51,697 nucleotides of DNA from a virus (lineage: Duplodnaviria > Caudoviricetes). Location of the stretch: positions 1-51,697 of IMG/VR virus record IMGVR_UViG_3300011336_000274, one strand, 5' to 3'. The position numbers were made by a program, and so were the translations under genes. Under the pieces are notes generated by a model that saw nothing but the letters and a program-made list of their open reading frames with translations, was not told where the DNA came from and ran no database searches. Shown here in pieces: positions 29,990 through 38,066 of this stretch (the first letter of the stretch is position 1; each line of letters opens with the position of its first letter).

Positions 29990-30211
29990 ATGGACGCGCA
30001 GACGCTAATCAATATCGGTTTGGGGCTCATAGGCTTCTTTGGGGGCTGGACGATTAATAGCATCACCCGGTCGGTGGAACGCCTTGATGTTGATGTCCGA
30101 GGTCTACAGCGGGAATACGTCACCAAGCAGGATTACCACCGAGACATCGACGAGATCAAGGCCATGTGCAAGCAGATTTTTGACAAACTTGATTCCAAGG
30201 CTGACAAATGA
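29990..30211 (+). CDS. small N-anchored membrane coiled-coil protein (lysis-associated?)
   Basis: N-terminal TM helix, YVxKxDY...IFDKLDxKADK. Confidence 0.65.
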   Translation: MDAQTLINIGLGLIGFFGGWTINSITRSVERLDVDVRGLQREYVTKQDYHRDIDEIKAMCKQIFDKLDSKADK

Positions 30212-30849
30212 CTACACCCGCCGCCGTCCTTACTTACGACAGCCTCACGTCCACGGTCCTCCAGTATCTGGAGCGTACTGATGCGGCGGTGGTTAATTTC
30301 CTTCCCATGGCCATCATGCTGGCCGAGTTTGAGATCGCGGAAAACATCAAGACCCTTGGTCAGATGCTTGTGGCCGATGGCAACATGAACACCGGCAACC
30401 CGGTGATAGCCAAGCCCGCACGGTGGCGCAAGACGGTGTCAATGACCCTGACCACCACGGCGGGCCAGAAACAGCCCATCCTCCTGCGCAAGCTGGAGTA
30501 CTTGAACAACTACGCCCCGGACGTTACCGCTACCGGCACGCCCCTCTACTACGCCGACTACGACGCCGACCACTGGTTCGTGGCGCCCACGCCCAGCAGC
30601 AGCTTTGCGTTCGAGACGCTTTGCTACACCCGTTTGCAGCCCTTGGCATCCGACAACCAGACCAACTGGCTGACTCAAAACGCTCCTAACGCCATGCTGT
30701 ACGGCACGCTGAAACAGACCGCGCCGTTCCTGAAGGACGACGCCCGCTTGCAGGTATGGAGCAGCCTGTTTGACGCCGCCCTAGCCGCGTTGAAGGCCGA
30801 GGATCAGCTTCGTATTGGTGACCGCCAAGCCATCGCACAGGACTCCTAA
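30208..30849 (+). CDS. tail adaptor / tubular protein A-like
   Basis: TYxSL...YLER...AE...GxPxYY...APTP...TNWL...P..LYGxL pattern. Confidence 0.7.
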   Translation: MTTPAAVLTYDSLTSTVLQYLERTDAAVVNFLPMAIMLAEFEIAENIKTLGQMLVADGNMNTGNPVIAKPARWRKTVSMTLTTTAGQKQPILLRKLEYLNNYAPDVTATGTPLYYADYDADHWFVAPTPSSSFAFETLCYTRLQPLASDNQTNWLTQNAPNAMLYGTLKQTAPFLKDDARLQVWSSLFDAALAALKAEDQLRIGDRQAIAQDS

Positions 30850-30851
30850 TC

Positions 30852-32069
30852 ATGACCTCCTACACCAACCCTTTTTCTGGCCAGACCATCAGCCCCTCGG
30901 CGGTCAGCTATGAGTCGCTGTCGATCAGCGTCACCACCGAGCTGCAGTGGCCAGTAAACGGCAACACCAACACGCCGGTGAGCAACATCATCGACGTCAC
31001 GGCCACCACGACCTCGCTGCTGCTGAAGATGCCTCCCGCGCAGCAGGTATCGACCGGGCAGTCCGTGCTGATCCGCAACGTCGGGTCCAACACCTTCACG
31101 GTGACCGACTACTCCGGCAACACCATCGTCGCCATAACCACGGGCATCGCGCAGTTCATCTTCATCACCGACAACACCACGACCAACGGGGTGTGGGCCT
31201 CGGTGGTGTTTGGTGCAGGCACGTCGTCGGCCAATGCCGCAGCGCTTGCCGGGTACGGCCTCTTGGCATCTGGGCTGACCTTGAACCAGATATACCCTGT
31301 CGTCTCCTACAGCTCAAACTACACGCTGACTGACGCCAATAGCGCCGACCTGAGTGTGTGGACTGGCGGCGCGGGAACCCTGACGCTGCCTTCTGCGTCC
31401 GCCGTAGGAACCGGCTGGTTTATTACCATCAAGAACAACGGAACAGGGGTGCTCACGCTTACGCCGTCGGGTACCGACACTATCGACGGAAACCCCAACC
31501 AACAACTGCAATTGGCCGAGTCGATAAGCCTTGTCTCCAACGGCATAAATTGGAACAGTTTTGGGATTGGCCGGTCCAACACCTTTGCGTACACCCTGCT
31601 ATCGGTGGCTGTTACCGGAGGGACGCTTACGCTGTCAGCAACGCAGGCCGCAAACACCATTCAGGTATACAGCGGCGTGCTAACCAGCAACGAGATTGTG
31701 ATTGTGCCGTCCACGGTGCAGTTGTACACCATCACCAACAACACAACGGGCTCGTACACCTTTACCGTTAAAACGTCGGTTTTTGGGGGCGCAACAATAA
31801 CCATAGCGCAGGGCACTTCGCTGGTGCTTATCTGCGACGGCACCAACGTCTACAACGCCGCTTCGGGAGCGGCCAGTACTATCACAGCCCTGACGCTAGG
31901 AAATGGCTCGCTATTGGTACCGTCTCTTAAATTCGCAAGCGACCTGAACACTGGCCTGTATTTGGCAAGTTCGGGCCAGCTCGGCTTTGTAGTCACCAAT
32001 CTTTTGGCGGGGTACTTTGATTCCTCGGGGCTTACCGTCACCAATGGCATCAGCGGGGGTACGTTCTAA
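30852..32069 (+). CDS. tail-associated structural protein
   Basis: Thr/Ser-rich beta protein with TLPxASAVGxGW and PSxxFxSDxNTGLY fibre motifs. Confidence 0.7.
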   Translation: MTSYTNPFSGQTISPSAVSYESLSISVTTELQWPVNGNTNTPVSNIIDVTATTTSLLLKMPPAQQVSTGQSVLIRNVGSNTFTVTDYSGNTIVAITTGIAQFIFITDNTTTNGVWASVVFGAGTSSANAAALAGYGLLASGLTLNQIYPVVSYSSNYTLTDANSADLSVWTGGAGTLTLPSASAVGTGWFITIKNNGTGVLTLTPSGTDTIDGNPNQQLQLAESISLVSNGINWNSFGIGRSNTFAYTLLSVAVTGGTLTLSATQAANTIQVYSGVLTSNEIVIVPSTVQLYTITNNTTGSYTFTVKTSVFGGATITIAQGTSLVLICDGTNVYNAASGAASTITALTLGNGSLLVPSLKFASDLNTGLYLASSGQLGFVVTNLLAGYFDSSGLTVTNGISGGTF

Positions 32070-35000
32070 TGACCCAAAAGGTCGTATCCATGGAAATCCC
32101 TGCGGGGATACAGCGGGACGGGACGCAGTTTGACGCCCCCTGTTTTACCGACGGCAAGTGGGTGCGCTTTCAACGCAATCGGCCCCGCAAGATTGGTGGG
32201 TATAACGCGGTGTTTCTGAACGCCTCGGGCGTGTCCCGTGGCATGGCCATGAGCACCGTCGATGGCTTTAACTACGTGGTGTCTGGGTATAACGGCGGCT
32301 TGGAGCAATGGATCACCAGCCCAACAGGTGGCGTTGGCTCGGGGCCGTACACATACACCCTGAACGACTTCACCTCGAGCACCAACAATCTGTGGCAGTT
32401 TGACATCGCCTACGACTCCACTGGAAACAACACCAACAACATCGTTGCGCACCCGGGGCAGAATCTGTCCTTCATGACCTCTTCCACGGATACCCCGGTG
32501 TTGTACGGCACGTTTCCGGGGAACTCCGGCTCCCTGTCCTTGTCCAAGGTGGGCGTGTTTACCGCCAGCGCCAACACCACGAACGGTAGCACTGCGGTGG
32601 TGCTGACGGCGGCCAATGCCCGCGTGGGCGCGGGCCAAGCGGTGACGGGCACCGGCATCCCCTCCTCCACCACGGTGTCGTCGGTGCTGGGCAATACGGT
32701 CACGCTATCCAACGCCGCCACAGCGTCGACCACGGCACCGCTGTCGGGTGTGGTTCTCACCGGCACGGCTGGGCAGTTCTCCTGCACGGCTACCACGGGA
32801 TTGGCTAACGGCCAGACGATCAACATCAGCGGGTCCACTACTCCCACGGCGCTGAGTGGCGTGTACGCCACCAACTCCTCGGGTCGTTTCAACTACAGCG
32901 GCGGCTCCGCGCTTTCGGTTGGAACACCGGTCACGATAAGCGGTGCCGCGACCAACACGGCCCTGAGCAGCGCCTACGCCATCAGCACCGCTGGGGGCTT
33001 TTCCTGCGCGGCGTCGGCCACCCCGCTCAGTGTCGGGCAACAGGTAATAGTCAGCGGGACCGCCACCGATACCGTGCTGGGCACCGTCTACGGCACGGAC
33101 ACCACCGCCAACTTCACTTGCACCAGCGCCACACCCTTGGCCATAGGCCAGATAGTCAGGGTGAGCGGCACGCCCACGTCGACCGGCTTGACCAACGTCT
33201 ACACCACAGGGCTGGCCGGAACTTTCTCGTGTACCAGTGTCAGCACCCTTGCGGTGGGCCAAACTGTATCCGTGACCGGGTCGGGCACGGCCACCACGTT
33301 AAGCGGCGTGTACTCCACCGGCGCAGCGGGAACTCTGGTGTGCAGCAACTCAAGCACCGTCTTGCAAGTTGGCCAGACCGTCACGACCACGGGCACCACC
33401 AGCACCACGGCGCTGTCTAGCGTCGTCATCACCGGCACGGCGGGCACCTTCCAGTGCGCGGCCTCGCCGGTTACTCTGTACGTGGGCCAGCCTGTTGTCA
33501 TCAGCGGCGTCTTCGGGGGCACGGGCAGCATTACCGGGTACGTCAACCCCACGACGTACTACATCATCACGACCAACGGGAGCACCACGTTCACGCTGTC
33601 GGCCAGCTTGGGCGGCGCGGCGGTAACTACCGTGGCGGGGACTCCAACGGGCGTGACGTACACCCTGAGCGCTGCCACGGGTTACAGCGCCGCGACGTAC
33701 TACATCATCGCCACCAACGGCGTGAACACCCTGACGCTGTCGGCCACCTCCGGAGGCGCGGCGGTGACGAGCACGGTGGGAGCAACCACGGGCCTTACTT
33801 TTGCGGCAAACGCCTTGACCATATCTGGGTCGACGCCGTACTACATCATCGCCACCAACGGCTCCTCCACGTTCACGCTGTCGGCCACGTCGGGCGGCGC
33901 TGCGGTAACGACCACCATCGGCGCGGGCACCGGGTTCACGTTTAGCGCCAATGCGCTGTCCATATCAGGGTACTCCACCCCAACTGATTACTTTGTGATC
34001 GCCACCAACGGCGCGTCCACGTTCCAGCTATCCACCACCTCTGGCGGGGCTGCGGTGACAACGACGTCTGGCCCGAGCACCGGCCTGACCTTTACGGCCA
34101 AGGCGTCCAACGTCGCTGCGGCCACGTACTACATCATCGCCACCAACGGCGGCACTACGTTCACGTTGTCCACCACGCCTACGGGTAGCGGGGCCACGGT
34201 GACCATTGGGCCTACCACGGGGCTTTCCGTGACCGCTCAGGCCACGGTCATTACCGGCTACACCAACCCCAAGGTGTACTACGTAATAGCCACGGACGGC
34301 GCGTCGTACTTCCAGCTATCCGCCACCAGCGGGGGTGGGGCCATCACGAACACGGTCGGGCCGGTGACGGGGCTGTCGTTCTCGTTGAACACGCCATCCG
34401 CCTTGAGCGGGGTGACCATCACCGGCACGGCGGGGCAGTTCTCTTGCAGCGCGTCGCCCGCGCTACTTCAGGTCGGCCAGCCCGTGGTGATCAGCGGCGC
34501 CTTTGGGGGCACCGGCTCCATAACGGGCTACCTGAACTCGACCACGTACTACATCATCACCACCAACGGCTCGACGACGTTCACGCTGTCCGCCACGCTA
34601 GGCGGCGCGGCCATCACCACCACGGCGGGGACGCCCACGGGCCTGACGTACACCCTGTCCGGCGCGGTGATAACGGGGTTCCCGGGAACCCCAAGCTACT
34701 ACATCATCGCCACCAACGGCACGACCACGTTCCAGATTTCTGCCACCTCGGGCGGCACGGCACTGGTGACGGCCATAGGCACCACGACCAACCTGAGCTT
34801 TTCTGTGTCCAACCCGGTCACGCTGACCTTCGACAACAACATCTCGGTATCCGGCGGGTGCATCGTGCTCCATCCGTACCTGTTCGTGTACGGCGACAAT
34901 GGCCTGATCCAGAACTCCAGCGCGGGCGACTTTGCCAACTGGGTGTCTGCTGACGCCAACTCGAACAACGTGGCCACCGGCAAGATCGTCAAGGGCCTAC

Positions 35001-36118
35001 CCATCAGGGGAGGCTCCACGTCGCCGTCTGGGCTGTTCTGGGCCGTCGACGCCTTGATCCGGGTGTCCTTCCAGCCGTCCTCGGCGGGCGGCCAGAACTT
35101 TTACTGGACCTACGACTTGGTGAGCAGCCAGACCTCCATCATGTCGTCAAGCTGCGTGATCGAGTACGACGGCATTTTCTACTGGATCGGCGTGGACCGG
35201 TTCCTGTCCTACAACGGCGCGGTCCAAGAGATACCGAACGATCTGAACCAGAACTATTTCTTCGACAACGTCAACATCGCCCAGCGCCAGAAGGTGTGGG
35301 CCAGCAAGGTGAGCCGGTATGGCGAGATATGGTGGTTCTACCCCAAGGGCGACGCCACCGAATGCACCGATGCCATCATCTACAACGTGCGCAACAAGTC
35401 ATGGTACGACGCCGGTGAGGCGCTAGGCGCCCGCCGCTCGGCAGGGGTGTTCTCTGAGGTGTTCCCTAAGCCTTTCTGGGCGGGCAACGAGTCCGAAGGC
35501 GTGGTATTTAGCCAAGAACTTGCCACGGTAAATACCACCACAACGCTGACGCTTAACTTGGCCGACAGCCGCATCCTTATTGGGATGGCTATTACCGGTC
35601 TTTATATACCGGTGGGGACAACAGTGCTCAACGTGGTGGGGACTACCGTCACCATGTCCAATGCCGCTACCAATAGCGGCACTATTACGGTCACCTTCAC
35701 CGGCGTCAACTACACCTTGTGGCAGCATGAGACGGGCTACGACGCCATCAACTTGACCAGCGTCACGGCCATCCAGAGCTATTTCGAGACCAACAACATC
35801 GGCACCTTGGGCGGGCTGGTGGGCACCAAGCAGCAGCCCGGCGACAACCTGTGGACACGGCTGGAGCGCGTGGAGCCTGACTTCGTGCAGACGGGCGCCA
35901 TGACGGTGACCGTCACGGGGCAGGGCTACGCCGACGACACCGTGGTGGATTCCAGCCCCTACTCGTTTGACCCCACTACGCTTAAAATCGACATGCGTGA
36001 ACAGCGCCGCGAGATGCGGTTGCGGTTTGAGTCCAACGTAGCAGGCGGCACCTACCAGACGGGCCGTGTGCTGCTATCCCTAACAACAGGCGACAGCCGA
36101 AGCACAGGAAACCCATGA
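32069..36118 (+). CDS. tail nozzle/stabilisation (tubular B-like) protein with a 692-aa nested repeat insertion
   Basis: Conserved-looking termini (WVRFQRNRPRKIGG; FYWIG...YNG.V...EIWWFYP) flank Thr/Gly-rich repeats at aa 225-916. Confidence 0.75.
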   Translation: MTQKVVSMEIPAGIQRDGTQFDAPCFTDGKWVRFQRNRPRKIGGYNAVFLNASGVSRGMAMSTVDGFNYVVSGYNGGLEQWITSPTGGVGSGPYTYTLNDFTSSTNNLWQFDIAYDSTGNNTNNIVAHPGQNLSFMTSSTDTPVLYGTFPGNSGSLSLSKVGVFTASANTTNGSTAVVLTAANARVGAGQAVTGTGIPSSTTVSSVLGNTVTLSNAATASTTAPLSGVVLTGTAGQFSCTATTGLANGQTINISGSTTPTALSGVYATNSSGRFNYSGGSALSVGTPVTISGAATNTALSSAYAISTAGGFSCAASATPLSVGQQVIVSGTATDTVLGTVYGTDTTANFTCTSATPLAIGQIVRVSGTPTSTGLTNVYTTGLAGTFSCTSVSTLAVGQTVSVTGSGTATTLSGVYSTGAAGTLVCSNSSTVLQVGQTVTTTGTTSTTALSSVVITGTAGTFQCAASPVTLYVGQPVVISGVFGGTGSITGYVNPTTYYIITTNGSTTFTLSASLGGAAVTTVAGTPTGVTYTLSAATGYSAATYYIIATNGVNTLTLSATSGGAAVTSTVGATTGLTFAANALTISGSTPYYIIATNGSSTFTLSATSGGAAVTTTIGAGTGFTFSANALSISGYSTPTDYFVIATNGASTFQLSTTSGGAAVTTTSGPSTGLTFTAKASNVAAATYYIIATNGGTTFTLSTTPTGSGATVTIGPTTGLSVTAQATVITGYTNPKVYYVIATDGASYFQLSATSGGGAITNTVGPVTGLSFSLNTPSALSGVTITGTAGQFSCSASPALLQVGQPVVISGAFGGTGSITGYLNSTTYYIITTNGSTTFTLSATLGGAAITTTAGTPTGLTYTLSGAVITGFPGTPSYYIIATNGTTTFQISATSGGTALVTAIGTTTNLSFSVSNPVTLTFDNNISVSGGCIVLHPYLFVYGDNGLIQNSSAGDFANWVSADANSNNVATGKIVKGLPIRGGSTSPSGLFWAVDALIRVSFQPSSAGGQNFYWTYDLVSSQTSIMSSSCVIEYDGIFYWIGVDRFLSYNGAVQEIPNDLNQNYFFDNVNIAQRQKVWASKVSRYGEIWWFYPKGDATECTDAIIYNVRNKSWYDAGEALGARRSAGVFSEVFPKPFWAGNESEGVVFSQELATVNTTTTLTLNLADSRILIGMAITGLYIPVGTTVLNVVGTTVTMSNAATNSGTITVTFTGVNYTLWQHETGYDAINLTSVTAIQSYFETNNIGTLGGLVGTKQQPGDNLWTRLERVEPDFVQTGAMTVTVTGQGYADDTVVDSSPYSFDPTTLKIDMREQRREMRLRFESNVAGGTYQTGRVLLSLTTGDSRSTGNP
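32741..34816 (+). repeat. nested array of 8 A-type and 8 B-type half-domain repeats
   Basis: A = LSGVxxTGxAGxFxC...LxVGQxVxxSG; B = YYIIATNGxxTFxLSxTxGG...TGLTF; order AAAAAAA BBBBBB AB B. Confidence 0.85.
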
Positions 36119-36344: not shown

Positions 36345-38066
36345 ATGCCACAAGGCGGGCCAGTAAATAATCCAGCGCCAATGACTGCATTGACGCCCGG
36401 AGCGGTATATCAAGCCGGTACTAGCGGCGGGCAGGGGGGCCCTACGGCTGGTTTTTACCGGCCAAAAACAAATCAAGAACTAGCCCGCGACATAGGGGCG
36501 CAAGATGCCGCTACCATAGCGGCTGGCCCCCCAAAACCCGGCATGGTTTTTTATACTGGGGCAACGTGGGACCCCATGTCAGACCGCACACCAACCGCCG
36601 GGGGTTGGGGGTACCCCCAGAGCAATTTTGATGCTCTTGTTGGTAACATTGGTGGTATAGCGAAAACAGTGGCCCCAATAGTTTTAACAGCACTAGGCGC
36701 AAACTATGTTCTTCCTGAATTGATGGGTGTCGCTGGTACGGCTGGCGGTGCTGCTGGTGCAGGCGCTGGCGCGGGGGCTGCTGGTACTGGGGCCGCTGGC
36801 GCGGGTGCTGCTGGCGCGGGTGCTGCGGGGGCTTTAACCCCCGCCGCACTTGAGTCTTTGATTGGTACAGCCGGATACGGGGCAAGTGCGGCTGCGGGCG
36901 CTGGTTCTGGCGCTGGTGCTTATGCCGCTGGTCTTGGGGCCGCAGGTATGGGCGCCGCTGCGCCATCGGGCTACTCCACTGCTGCTGCTGATCTGTTAGG
37001 GGGCATGGGTGTTGCTGCGCCAACAAGCACGGGGGGTTTGGCGTCTGTAAATGAGATGGTAGCTTCCGGCATGTCCCCGGGGTCCGTAGGAGCTGCTGGC
37101 GCAGCGGGGACGGCTTTTACACCCGCAGAGTTGGCTGCAGCTACCGGCACCCTTCCCGCAGCAACATCTATCAATGAGATGGTAGCCTCTGGCATGTCCC
37201 CGGGGTCTGCTGGTGCGCAGGGCGCGGTGGATGGCACTTTAACTGGAAGTGCCTTAGATACTGCGTATGGTGTTAACAACGCCGCCAGTACCCTATCCAC
37301 GCTTGACGTCTTAAACGCCATTCAGAAGGCCAAGGGCTTGTTTGATAAAGGCGCAAAGATGGGGACTTCCGGTGATGGAACCGGTTCTTCCGATTCTTCT
37401 GGCACCGGAATAGATTCGGCCTTGGCTCGCGTTGGTAAAATGGGTTCGGGCGATATGTTGCAACGCCCCATCCAGCAGCTATACAACAACACCAACTCCC
37501 CGAACTTTTCCACTGGGGGCTCGGTCGACGACATTACGCGGTCCTTGCTGGCTGATTCCGCGTCGGACAGCGCGGCCCCTGTTGCGGGGACAACCTCAAA
37601 GGTGGGCGATGTGGGCAAAGGCGGCCCGTTACAGCGCGCGGTGCAGCAGATGGAACGGGATTATTTGAAGGAATTTGCAGAAGGCGGCCACAACGTGATC
37701 CCCGAGCTTGTGTCGCTGATCCGGTCGCGGGCTACGCCGCAGGACCGCTCCCACCCCCATTACGACGGCGTGCCGCTGCTGCGCACGGGCGGACTGCCGG
37801 GCCCCGGTGGAAAGTACGTTGAGGGCAAGGGCGACGGCACCAGCGACGACATCGCGGCCATGCTGGCCAACGGCGAGTACGTCTTCAGCGCCGACGTGGT
37901 GGCGGCCTTGGGCAACGGCTCCAACAAGGCCGGAGCCCAAGAGCTCGACAGGATGGTGCGGGCCATCCGGTCGCGGGCACGGTCGGCGCCCCCCGACAAG
38001 TTGCCCCCGGATGCCAAGTCCCCGCTAGAATACATGCAGTCCTCAAAGGGGAAAAAATATGGCTGA
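36345..38066 (+). CDS. putative internal virion/ejection protein with C-terminal tape-measure-type GDGTSDDI...NGEYV domain
   Basis: Gly/Ala-rich hydrophobic middle; FSTGG, FAEGG, LRTGG motifs; GKGDGTSDDIAAMLANGEYVFSADVV. Confidence 0.7.
   Translation: MPQGGPVNNPAPMTALTPGAVYQAGTSGGQGGPTAGFYRPKTNQELARDIGAQDAATIAAGPPKPGMVFYTGATWDPMSDRTPTAGGWGYPQSNFDALVGNIGGIAKTVAPIVLTALGANYVLPELMGVAGTAGGAAGAGAGAGAAGTGAAGAGAAGAGAAGALTPAALESLIGTAGYGASAAAGAGSGAGAYAAGLGAAGMGAAAPSGYSTAAADLLGGMGVAAPTSTGGLASVNEMVASGMSPGSVGAAGAAGTAFTPAELAAATGTLPAATSINEMVASGMSPGSAGAQGAVDGTLTGSALDTAYGVNNAASTLSTLDVLNAIQKAKGLFDKGAKMGTSGDGTGSSDSSGTGIDSALARVGKMGSGDMLQRPIQQLYNNTNSPNFSTGGSVDDITRSLLADSASDSAAPVAGTTSKVGDVGKGGPLQRAVQQMERDYLKEFAEGGHNVIPELVSLIRSRATPQDRSHPHYDGVPLLRTGGLPGPGGKYVEGKGDGTSDDIAAMLANGEYVFSADVVAALGNGSNKAGAQELDRMVRAIRSRARSAPPDKLPPDAKSPLEYMQSSKGKKYG

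Follow-up and report, generated by a model that had tools for sequence, protein, structure and literature searches.

What protein architecture is encoded where two different short repeats, eight copies of each, follow one another inside a single phage tail gene? The question is raised by the window, i.e. the whole stretch of 51,697 nucleotides of phage DNA analysed here, in which nt 32741–34816 encode aa 225–916 of a 1349-aa protein and hold an array of such repeats, named A and B. The array gene and its upstream context are as follows.

30208..30849, + strand: upstream adaptor gene, used in assigning the nozzle (PF24175 SU10_adaptor, E 2.3e-21)
32069..36118, + strand: whole gene of the likely tail nozzle protein hosting the array (ORF, 1349 aa)

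A tail-fibre-like gene lies between these two, and the same order of adaptor, fibre-like and nozzle-type genes is repeated in MW202545.1 and in Caulobacter phage GB2A. The 1349-aa protein matches PHROG 3287 (virion structural protein), and its residues 1007–1113 gave a weak match (E 0.005) to chains named 'nozzle gp16' (PDB 8zkk and 8zkm), while a Pfam search with the whole protein at E≤0.01 returned 0 families. The product of the array gene is likely a podophage nozzle-type tail protein.

With HMMs made from the copies, we recognised exactly eight A and eight B halves in the order AAAAAAABBBBBBABB (seven A, six B, then A, B, B), and a search of the other frames and ORFs of the window with these HMMs found no further halves. 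The A halves are ~37 aa long (aa 225–261, 262–298, 299–336, 337–373, 374–410, 411–448, 449–486 and 779–816), and the B halves ~47–54 aa (aa 487–534, 535–581, 582–628, 629–677, 678–724, 725–778, 817–864 and 865–914). As all 16 halves and the intact units match the same two HMMs, host and insert belong to the same domain family. The halves are listed below with their proposed nested partners and the evidence for each.

32741..32851, + strand: A1, outermost first half; partner B8 (HMM matches)
32852..32962, + strand: A2, Cys-less; partner B6 (A column 15 covaries with B columns 19 and 23)
32963..33076, + strand: A3; partner B5 (HMM matches)
33077..33187, + strand: A4; partner B4 (HMM matches)
33188..33298, + strand: A5; partner B3 (HMM matches; in the complex test)
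33299..33412, + strand: A6, Phe to Leu; partner B2 (covariation; in the complex test)
33413..33670, + strand: A7+B1, innermost intact unit, aa 449–534 (contiguous domain elsewhere; pLDDT 96.4)
33671..33811, + strand: B2, Phe to Leu; partner A6 (covariation; complex test)
33812..33952, + strand: B3; partner A5 (copy alignment; complex test)
33953..34099, + strand: B4; partner A4 (copy alignment)
34100..34240, + strand: B5; partner A3 (copy alignment)
34241..34402, + strand: B6, TDGASYF; partner A2 (copy alignment; covariation)
34403..34660, + strand: A8+B7, putative side-branch intact unit, aa 779–864, in the loop of unit A1/B8 (copy comparison)
34661..34810, + strand: B8, outermost second half; partner A1 (HMM matches)

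A first-pass annotation, made from the letters alone, had read these 16 halves as balancing like parentheses, and the HMM order bears this out. Its description of eight nested domains holds for the number of copies, but the word is seven levels deep with one side branch, rather than eight levels in a chain. Its term 'near-identical' for the two intact units was too strong, since they share 81% protein and 73.6% DNA identity (76% for A7/A8 and 88% for B1/B7); these two units are each other's closest relatives. Leu replaces a conserved Phe only in A6 (GTLVC) among the A halves and only in B2 (NTLTLS) among the B halves; similarly, only A2 lacks the Cys among the A halves and only B6 has TDGASYF among the B halves. 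A random order of eight A and eight B is balanced with a probability of 1/9. Therefore, the word in the window is not decisive by itself, and the balance argument takes its weight from the relatives.

We consider it likely that the array is a nested, single-chain arrangement of eight ~84-residue domains within a beta-module of the nozzle protein, and that it grows by whole units. According to this model, a surface beta-module of the nozzle protein has received eight copies of one ~84-residue all-beta domain, composed of the halves A and B with a beta-hairpin joining them. Seven of the copies would be nested, each whole unit being borne on the hairpin tip of the one before it. The chain would run out from A1 to A7, back from B1 to B6 and then through B8, and partners of the same level would fold together (A7–B1, A6–B2, A5–B3, A4–B4, A3–B5, A2–B6 and A1–B8), with the eighth unit, A8–B7, branching off sideways from the loop of the outermost unit. 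Each nozzle subunit would then carry outside the tail a single-chain, out-and-back stalk of barrel domains, which may be rod-shaped and tunable in length. Such a stalk would be dispensable for the nozzle core and would probably serve in host-surface contact or spacing.

We observed that A+B is a domain in its own right, as the first-pass annotation had supposed. A search of 1.84 billion representatives with the 86-aa unit gave 498 proteins at E≤1e-3, and most of the 150 listed matches were one contiguous stretch covering residues 1–85 at 60–77% identity. AlphaFold2 predicted the unit (52-row alignment) as a compact, all-beta fold with a pLDDT of 96.4 and a pTM of 0.85. The domain carries no name in the collections searched: Pfam gave 0 families at E≤1 for the unit and for the small host module C (see below), a sequence search of the PDB with the unit gave 0 matches at E≤1, and Foldseek with the confident unit model found none in the PDB at E≤0.001, the best being ATPase N-terminal barrels at E 0.17. 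In BFVD, two proteins of uncultured phages matched at E≤0.001 with 67% identity, neither bearing a name or function. A tblastn search of 50,697 phage records with the unit gave no match, for which the low-complexity filter is possibly responsible.

The compactness of A+B, found alone in most of the 150 listed matches, bears on an obvious alternative, namely that the A and B repeats form two tandem arrays independent of each other (beta-solenoid or fibre segments) and having only local contacts, with equal counts that are incidental. The next body of evidence on this alternative came from the bracket grammar, which we counted in 262 relatives among the matches listed (the searches gave 784 and 498 matches). 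Words were balanced in 222 of the 262 proteins and took 28 distinct shapes with depths of 1 to 8; 22 of these shapes, found in 102 proteins, have a depth of at least 2. Residue-level inspection of 31 of the 40 unbalanced proteins traced 28 imbalances to further inserts that split a half, to halves that had diverged or were hidden, to weak spurious matches or to one duplicated strand piece, and the remaining three were one truncated ORF and two odd cases. P0236 appears permuted, and P0187, having three B halves and zero A, was the single B-only protein, while none of the 262 was A-only. The first-pass annotation had looked to homologs for their nesting depth and had named unbalanced counts there as evidence against nesting; such imbalance is not general, and most of the inspected exceptions were split halves. 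A tandem fibre or solenoid should show self-sufficient repeats with free copy numbers, whereas A equals B in the 222 balanced proteins, through all the 28 shapes. Moreover, branched words (AABABB and AABAABBB, for example) would be meaningless if A and B formed two arrays.

Pair-specific covariation also sides with the nested partners. We used 370 split units from 76 proteins and observed a total mutual information of 303.3 under nested pairing, as compared with 285.6–292.0 under four fixed shifted pairings. Double changes at A13/B24 numbered 13 under nested pairing and 0, 0, 0 and 2 under the shifted ones; nine of these 13 Phe double changes came from the window's own clade, two from a second lineage and two involve gaps, so these counts are phylogenetically non-independent. 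For A15/B23, the Fisher p was 9e-15 in the nested and 0.02–0.47 in the shifted pairings. Both of the covariations pointed out by the first-pass annotation were recovered in this sample. The Phe to Leu change shared by A6 and B2 recurs as a double change at nested partners in the second lineage (P0024/P0034), and the loss of the A Cys, seen in A2 opposite the atypical B6, tracks B columns 19 and 23 only under nested pairing. A mutual-information map of all units (735 units, with 51 column pairs exceeding 40 shuffles) was set aside as evidence, because intact and split units differ and this inflates it; comparisons within split units alone count. Residue covariation in these alignments thus favours nested over shifted pairings.

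The trees of the copies lend the two-array alternative some room, as A-copy and B-copy similarities are not mirrored in the window protein: a mirror-tree permutation inside P0001 placed the nested pairing at rank 2403 of 40320, and at 331 of 720 when the six outer units were taken by themselves, neither being significant, and no pairing signal was found beyond the two intact units. Structure prediction of the array excludes nothing either. AlphaFold2 modelled aa 160–930 (23-row alignment A1) with a mean pLDDT of 58.2 and a pTM of 0.31, the A1–A2 region being below 50, and Foldseek with this low-confidence model gave no match at E≤0.001, its listing not being meaningful. We nevertheless rejected the two independent arrays on the single A+B domain, the balanced counts and the covariation, and hold them to be very improbable. 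A repeat expansion without structural meaning was also considered and rejected.

Would the halves pair within one chain or between chains? We modelled A5–A6 and B2–B3 as separate chains, on an alignment made by ourselves, and obtained ipSAE values of 0.35, 0.33 and 0.33, the best of three controls giving 0.00; contact agreement between the runs was at least 96% and partner pLDDT at least 72. The pass mark of this test is met by 58 of 80 solved complexes and by 2 of 110 mismatched pairs. Passing scores of up to 0.60, however, comprise seven of the 80 solved complexes and both of the passing mismatches, so that such a pass is wrong more often than right unless the hypothesis was likely beforehand. 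Direct three-dimensional support for nesting from these models is weak.

Nozzle proteins of short-tailed phages form rings. It is therefore conceivable that the A run of a subunit finds its complement in the B run of the adjacent one, a domain swap that would cross-link the subunits. Balanced grammar and covariation are equally expected from such swapping, and the complex test shows merely that separate A-run and B-run chains can associate. On the other hand, the innermost unit is contiguous in every case, and only 0–4 residues link successive halves, so that the simplest closure is within one chain. The same nests also occur in other host proteins with a different packing, tail sheath proteins with PF17482 being an example. 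For these reasons, we regard interchain pairing as improbable, and continue with the nested single-chain stalk.

We then asked where the array sits in its host and by what steps it changes in size. The array interrupts module C, a small beta-module of the host protein, as follows.

32561..32740, + strand: first part of module C, aa ~165–224 (aligns to P0263 aa 237–306, where it is uninterrupted)
34811..34843, + strand: last strand of module C, NPVTLTFDNNI, cut off by the array (comparison with P0263)

P0263, a protein of 672 aa whose matched C-terminal part is 70% identical to the window protein, lacks aa 225–916. It is continuous across the site (...TLSNNATASGTVTLTFDNN...), whereas in the window protein aa 225–916 separate ...SNAATASTTAP from NPVTLTFDNN. 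The suggestion in the first-pass annotation that the array was inserted before the last strand of another beta-module agrees with this uninterrupted site. Between P0084 and P0115, which are 86% identical, ~89 extra residues in P0084 amount to one A and one B and lie exactly at the A|B junction. In P0025 and P0031, a whole unit lies inside a B half that P0026 keeps uninterrupted. Relative to the 8/8 form, all seven of the proteins with seven A and seven B halves (alignment A1) have a gap of A length and, apart from it, a gap of B length, both in the middle levels. Unit-level matching between the 8/8 and 7/7 forms picked nested partners in 37 of 105 protein pairs and does not locate the missing rung; single-gap scans were unstable, drifting over A3–A6 and B1–B5. 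As judged from these alignments, whole units are gained or lost at the hairpin tips of the array and, in relatives, at two other loops as well.

The same comparisons leave some probability, which we would put well short of even, to a reading in which the nesting is right and the units nevertheless form a flexible string or clump of decoration domains, a weak glycan-binding adhesin resembling Ig-like decorations, the copy number of which drifts near-neutrally. The closest relative is without the entire array, orthologues have 0, 7, 8 or 9 units, and the unit is also found in tail fibres, pectate-lyase-type proteins and sheaths, all of which suit such decorations. The very short linkers and the two-stranded connection at each level would argue for some stiffness, as expected of a nested stalk.

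Nested self-insertion is already published for cyanobacterial RNA polymerase, where Si3 of the beta' subunit is the closest published analogue. Si3 consists of nested sandwich-barrel hybrid motifs (SBHM), and in it, as in the phage array, host and insert come from one small beta domain family. Several copies in Si3 are discontinuous, being built from distant parts of the chain, and form an elongated body of ~150 Å, to which the putative phage stalk would be comparable. A 2026 survey covering 48,551 insertion events gives a six-level nest in Prochlorococcus rpoC2 as its complex example (PMC13114784). The phage domain belongs to another fold family, having no Pfam match and no PDB match by Foldseek at E≤0.001, and no RNA polymerase chain stood among the 50 Foldseek ranks listed for the pLDDT-96 unit. 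Its host is a virion tail protein, unlike the enzyme trigger loop that hosts Si3. The phage array has seven nested levels of one domain, and relatives reach eight. With module C and the nozzle included, the array has nine levels, and its depth varies widely between close relatives.

Two further systems are related in kind. In the 'Russian doll' of contractile tail sheaths (T4 gp18, diffocin CD1363), surface domains are also inserted within one another; those nests have two to four levels of different domains, whereas the array has one domain in its own copies, seven times. The unit also recalls E1_FCCH (PF16190) decorations as a small, surface-exposed beta-barrel on tail proteins, and the FCCH domain faces outward on siphophage tail tubes (PMC13576161). 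A language-model search placed an E1_FCCH cluster at rank 26 with a score of 0.92. Foldseek similarity to the E1 enzymes Uba1 and UBA6 was weak (E 0.45–1.1, probability 0.33–0.44, TM 0.39–0.47), and the unit had no match to the PF16190 profile even at E≤1. Within the limited range of literature covered, we found no published description of such self-nesting in phages or on a virus particle.

Taken more widely, we are inclined to think, with some reserve, that an unnamed and widespread ~84-residue phage barrel domain inserts into itself at its hairpin tip and at two further loops. It would thereby build out-and-back stalks or branched trees on nozzle, fibre and sheath proteins, with seven to eight levels (nine with the host modules), deeper than the six-level case of the survey. 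How many levels there are would determine their length, which would change one mutational step at a time. If true, this would be a second natural system of repeated domain self-insertion after Si3 of RNA polymerase, and one with many variants. The relatives form a graded series with depths of 0 to 8, branches and close pairs that differ by one unit, which makes the folding of discontinuous domains and growth by insertion directly testable. In genome annotation, such half-domains, from a domain without a Pfam model, are readily mistaken for two unrelated tandem repeats. For phage biology, the finding points to cheap, single-chain appendages of adjustable length.

In the window, which is a phage genome with portal, DNA polymerase and helicase genes, the tail module runs from an adaptor gene (PF24175 SU10_adaptor, E 2.3e-21) through a gene for a tail-fibre-like protein to the array gene. 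The following features are used below:

32069..36118, + strand, array gene, an ORF of 1349 aa
aa 449-534 of its product, contiguous A+B unit
aa 779-864 of its product, contiguous A+B unit

We observed that aa 225-914 of this protein (P0001) consist of eight A halves (~37 aa each) and eight B halves (~47-54 aa each), in the order A1-A7, B1-B6, A8, B7, B8. HMMs built from its own copies returned exactly that string, recovering the order described in the first-pass annotation, and found no further A or B matches in any frame of the window. The two contiguous units are mutually nearest copies; they had been called near-identical, which overstates 81% protein and 73.6% DNA identity. The singular residues pointed out earlier (the replacement of Phe by Leu in both A6 and B2, the Cys-less A2 and the odd B6) were all present.

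The array protein matched PHROG 3287 ('virion structural protein'), its aa 1007-1113 weakly matched PDB chains named 'nozzle gp16' (E 0.005), and the gene order of the tail module is the same in MW202545.1 and Caulobacter phage GB2A. On this basis, the protein is likely, but not proven, to be the nozzle. The next gene (36345-38066) encodes an Ala/Gly-rich protein of 573 aa with an internal duplicated segment. Its sole match is a weak one, over aa 488-525, to a tape-measure PHROG, and it may serve in ejection or be an internal protein.

Next, we considered the A+B unit as a domain. When 1.84 billion representatives were searched with the 86-aa unit, 498 proteins matched at E≤1e-3 and 307 at the stricter E≤1e-10. 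Among the 150 matches listed, most carry the unit without interruption from residue 1 to 85, with identities of 60-77%, and the proteins that carry it have many different lengths. AlphaFold2, given an alignment of these proteins (52 rows), predicted an all-beta fold (pLDDT 96.4, pTM 0.85). On the evidence of its predicted fold and its occurrence, A+B is one domain. In the DSSP strand string of this model a long strand stops at the A/B boundary and a short strand starts two residues on, so that the boundary looks like a hairpin tip, as read from the DSSP line rather than from coordinates. Neither a Pfam model nor a PDB sequence relative of the unit was found, and Foldseek of the model against the PDB gave no match at E≤0.001; its weak likenesses were small barrels (ATPase N-terminal domains, E1 FCCH and endosialidase inserts). 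In BFVD, the unit recurs in uncultured phage proteins, one of them of pectate-lyase type, with 67%-identical domains present. A tblastn search with the unit (33413-33670) against 50,697 phage records gave no match, with the low-complexity filter as a probable cause; this filter probably hides the Thr/Gly-rich domain from BLAST-based annotation.

The best phage-record match to the window protein was P0263, an array-less 672-aa relative from MW202545.1, whose matched C-terminal part is 70% identical. P0263 can be aligned to the flanks of the array at either end, and its chain runs without a break through a small beta-module (module C) that is split by the array in the window protein; this bears out the earlier proposal that the array is inserted within a beta-module. 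In the 510-aa homologue of GB2A, module C is absent too. Judged from this read-through and this absence, the nesting levels are nozzle, module C, and units 1 to 7 in turn. A second module C-type domain lies in the C-terminal part of the same protein (window 35516-35710, aa ~1150-1214); P0263 is without this copy and reads AGNEVNTAGQYTLWQHE at that place. P0263 (locus L001, 5083-7098) also has a different insert of ~90 aa near its N terminus (aa ~94-183), where the window protein has none. Set beside the window array, this insert suggests that the same nozzle scaffold accepts different inserts at different sites.

Whole-copy similarity of A and B within P0001 gave no pairing signal beyond the two intact units. 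Covariation between residue columns of A and B, sampled in 370 split units from 76 proteins, did give one. Total A-B mutual information was 303.3 for the nested pairing (in P0001, A7-B1 outwards to A1-B8, with A8-B7 as a side branch), 285.6-292.0 for four fixed shifts, whose inheritance is the same as that of the nested pairing, and 243.2 +/- 1.7 when partners were drawn at random within each protein. At the Phe positions A13/B24, 13 double changes were seen under nesting versus 0, 0, 0 and 2 under the shifts (nine from the window clade, two from a second lineage, P0024 and P0034, and two with gaps). Only under nesting was loss of the A Cys associated with changes at B23 ([[244,45],[32,49]], p 9e-15) and B19 (p 1e-4); as all these counts are not independent events, it is the contrast of nested versus shifted that carries the point. 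The covariation first noticed within P0001 extends to its relatives, the A13/B24 and A Cys signals holding under nesting and fading under the shifts.

The homologues were also expected to keep A and B in balance. We collected 262 proteins and reduced each to its string of A/B HMM hits (score at least 8). Read as brackets, 222 of the 262 were balanced, giving 28 distinct words; depth was at least 2 in 102 proteins. Depths 1 to 8 were represented by 120, 18, 8, 7, 32, 11, 16 and 10 proteins, respectively, and words beyond plain nA-then-nB included AABABB, AABAABBB, AABABBAB, ABABAABB, AABABABB and ABAAABBB. The other 40 strings were unbalanced as scored; most of the 31 inspected (10 by residue, 12 by token and 9 more read) are accounted for by split halves. 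Nine of the 10 strings read residue by residue are explained by halves themselves split: either A contains, after the FSC strand, a foreign domain of ~80 aa or a complete unit, or B contains a complete unit. The tenth comes from an ORF that lacks its beginning. The 12 further strings, from the same families, balance under the same accounting at token level. Among the nine others, two balance after counting a half that is split or diverged, in four a different domain gave a weak additional B hit, one contains a strand piece in duplicate, and two remain, P0236 with a permuted look and P0187 with three B halves and no A.

In P0236 (aa 525-615), C-terminal B strands precede an A half and the next B half is without them, so this unit looks circularly permuted. 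P0187 (477 aa) is the sole B-only protein among the 262, and may reflect a fragmentary gene or a frameshift in the call. Beyond the hairpin tip, the unit takes inserts at two more loops (P0025, P0031, P0030, P0047, P0058 and P0132): one in A, after the FSC strand, holding a whole unit or another domain of ~80 aa, and one in B, after the F-x-L-S strand, holding a whole unit.

Gains and losses of units were seen between close relatives. P0084 and P0115 are 86% identical, and the ~89 extra residues of P0084, amounting to one A and one B, are placed exactly at the A/B junction of a unit intact in P0115; by alignment, this difference is a one-step change of depth. In P0025 and P0031, a whole unit lies within a B half that runs continuous in P0026. 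In the 23-row alignment that also served to model the array, the 8/8 form was compared with all seven proteins that have seven halves of each kind; these show two gaps apart from each other, one the length of an A (aa 354-389) and one the length of a B (aa 618-667), both at middle levels. Copy-by-copy identities gave clear counterparts for the outer and innermost copies, and placed the loss among A5-A6 and B2-B4. For 37 of the 105 pairs, unit-level matching chose the nested partners, and single-gap scans were unstable, so that the lost rung is placed no more finely than this. What stands from these alignments is that the A/B balance was kept through changes at two distant places.

Direct structural tests, made on predicted models, speak weakly for the nesting. 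The AlphaFold2 model of the whole array had a pLDDT of 58.2. When A5-A6 and B2-B3 were folded as two chains with alignments of our own, ipSAE was 0.35, 0.33 and 0.33 (best of three controls, 0.00), and the runs agreed in at least 96% of contacts with a partner pLDDT of at least 72. The tool's verdict was 'weak support'. Of 80 solved complexes, 58 reach its mark, as do 2 of 110 mismatches; at scores ≤0.60 only 7 of the 80 complexes do, plus both passing mismatches.

Recursive nesting of one domain has been published for Si3, an insertion in cyanobacterial RNA polymerase: eight SBHMs lie in a body 150 Å long, and four of them are assembled from segments far apart in the chain (PMC10895346). A survey of 48,551 insertion events gives a six-level nest as the complex example (PMC13114784). 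Tail sheath proteins have different domains in a 'Russian doll' order (PMC6088184), whereas the window array repeats one domain. None of the literature searched describes a phage virion protein in which a domain is nested within itself.

The comparative evidence gives good support to the interpretation of the first-pass annotation, that a domain was repeatedly inserted into the same loop of itself. A physical stalk, and the function of a length-tunable appendage suggested for it, are what we would infer for this protein. Decoration of tail tubes by FCCH-type barrels is described in PMC13576161. Four proteins of ~1440 aa (P0046, P0100, P0110 and P0117) are listed with the tail sheath C-terminal domain PF17482, confirmed by Pfam search for P0046; in the first HMM pass, P0046, P0110 and P0117 read AAAABBBB and P0100 read AABBBB. 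These words suggest that the self-nesting module decorates contractile sheaths too.
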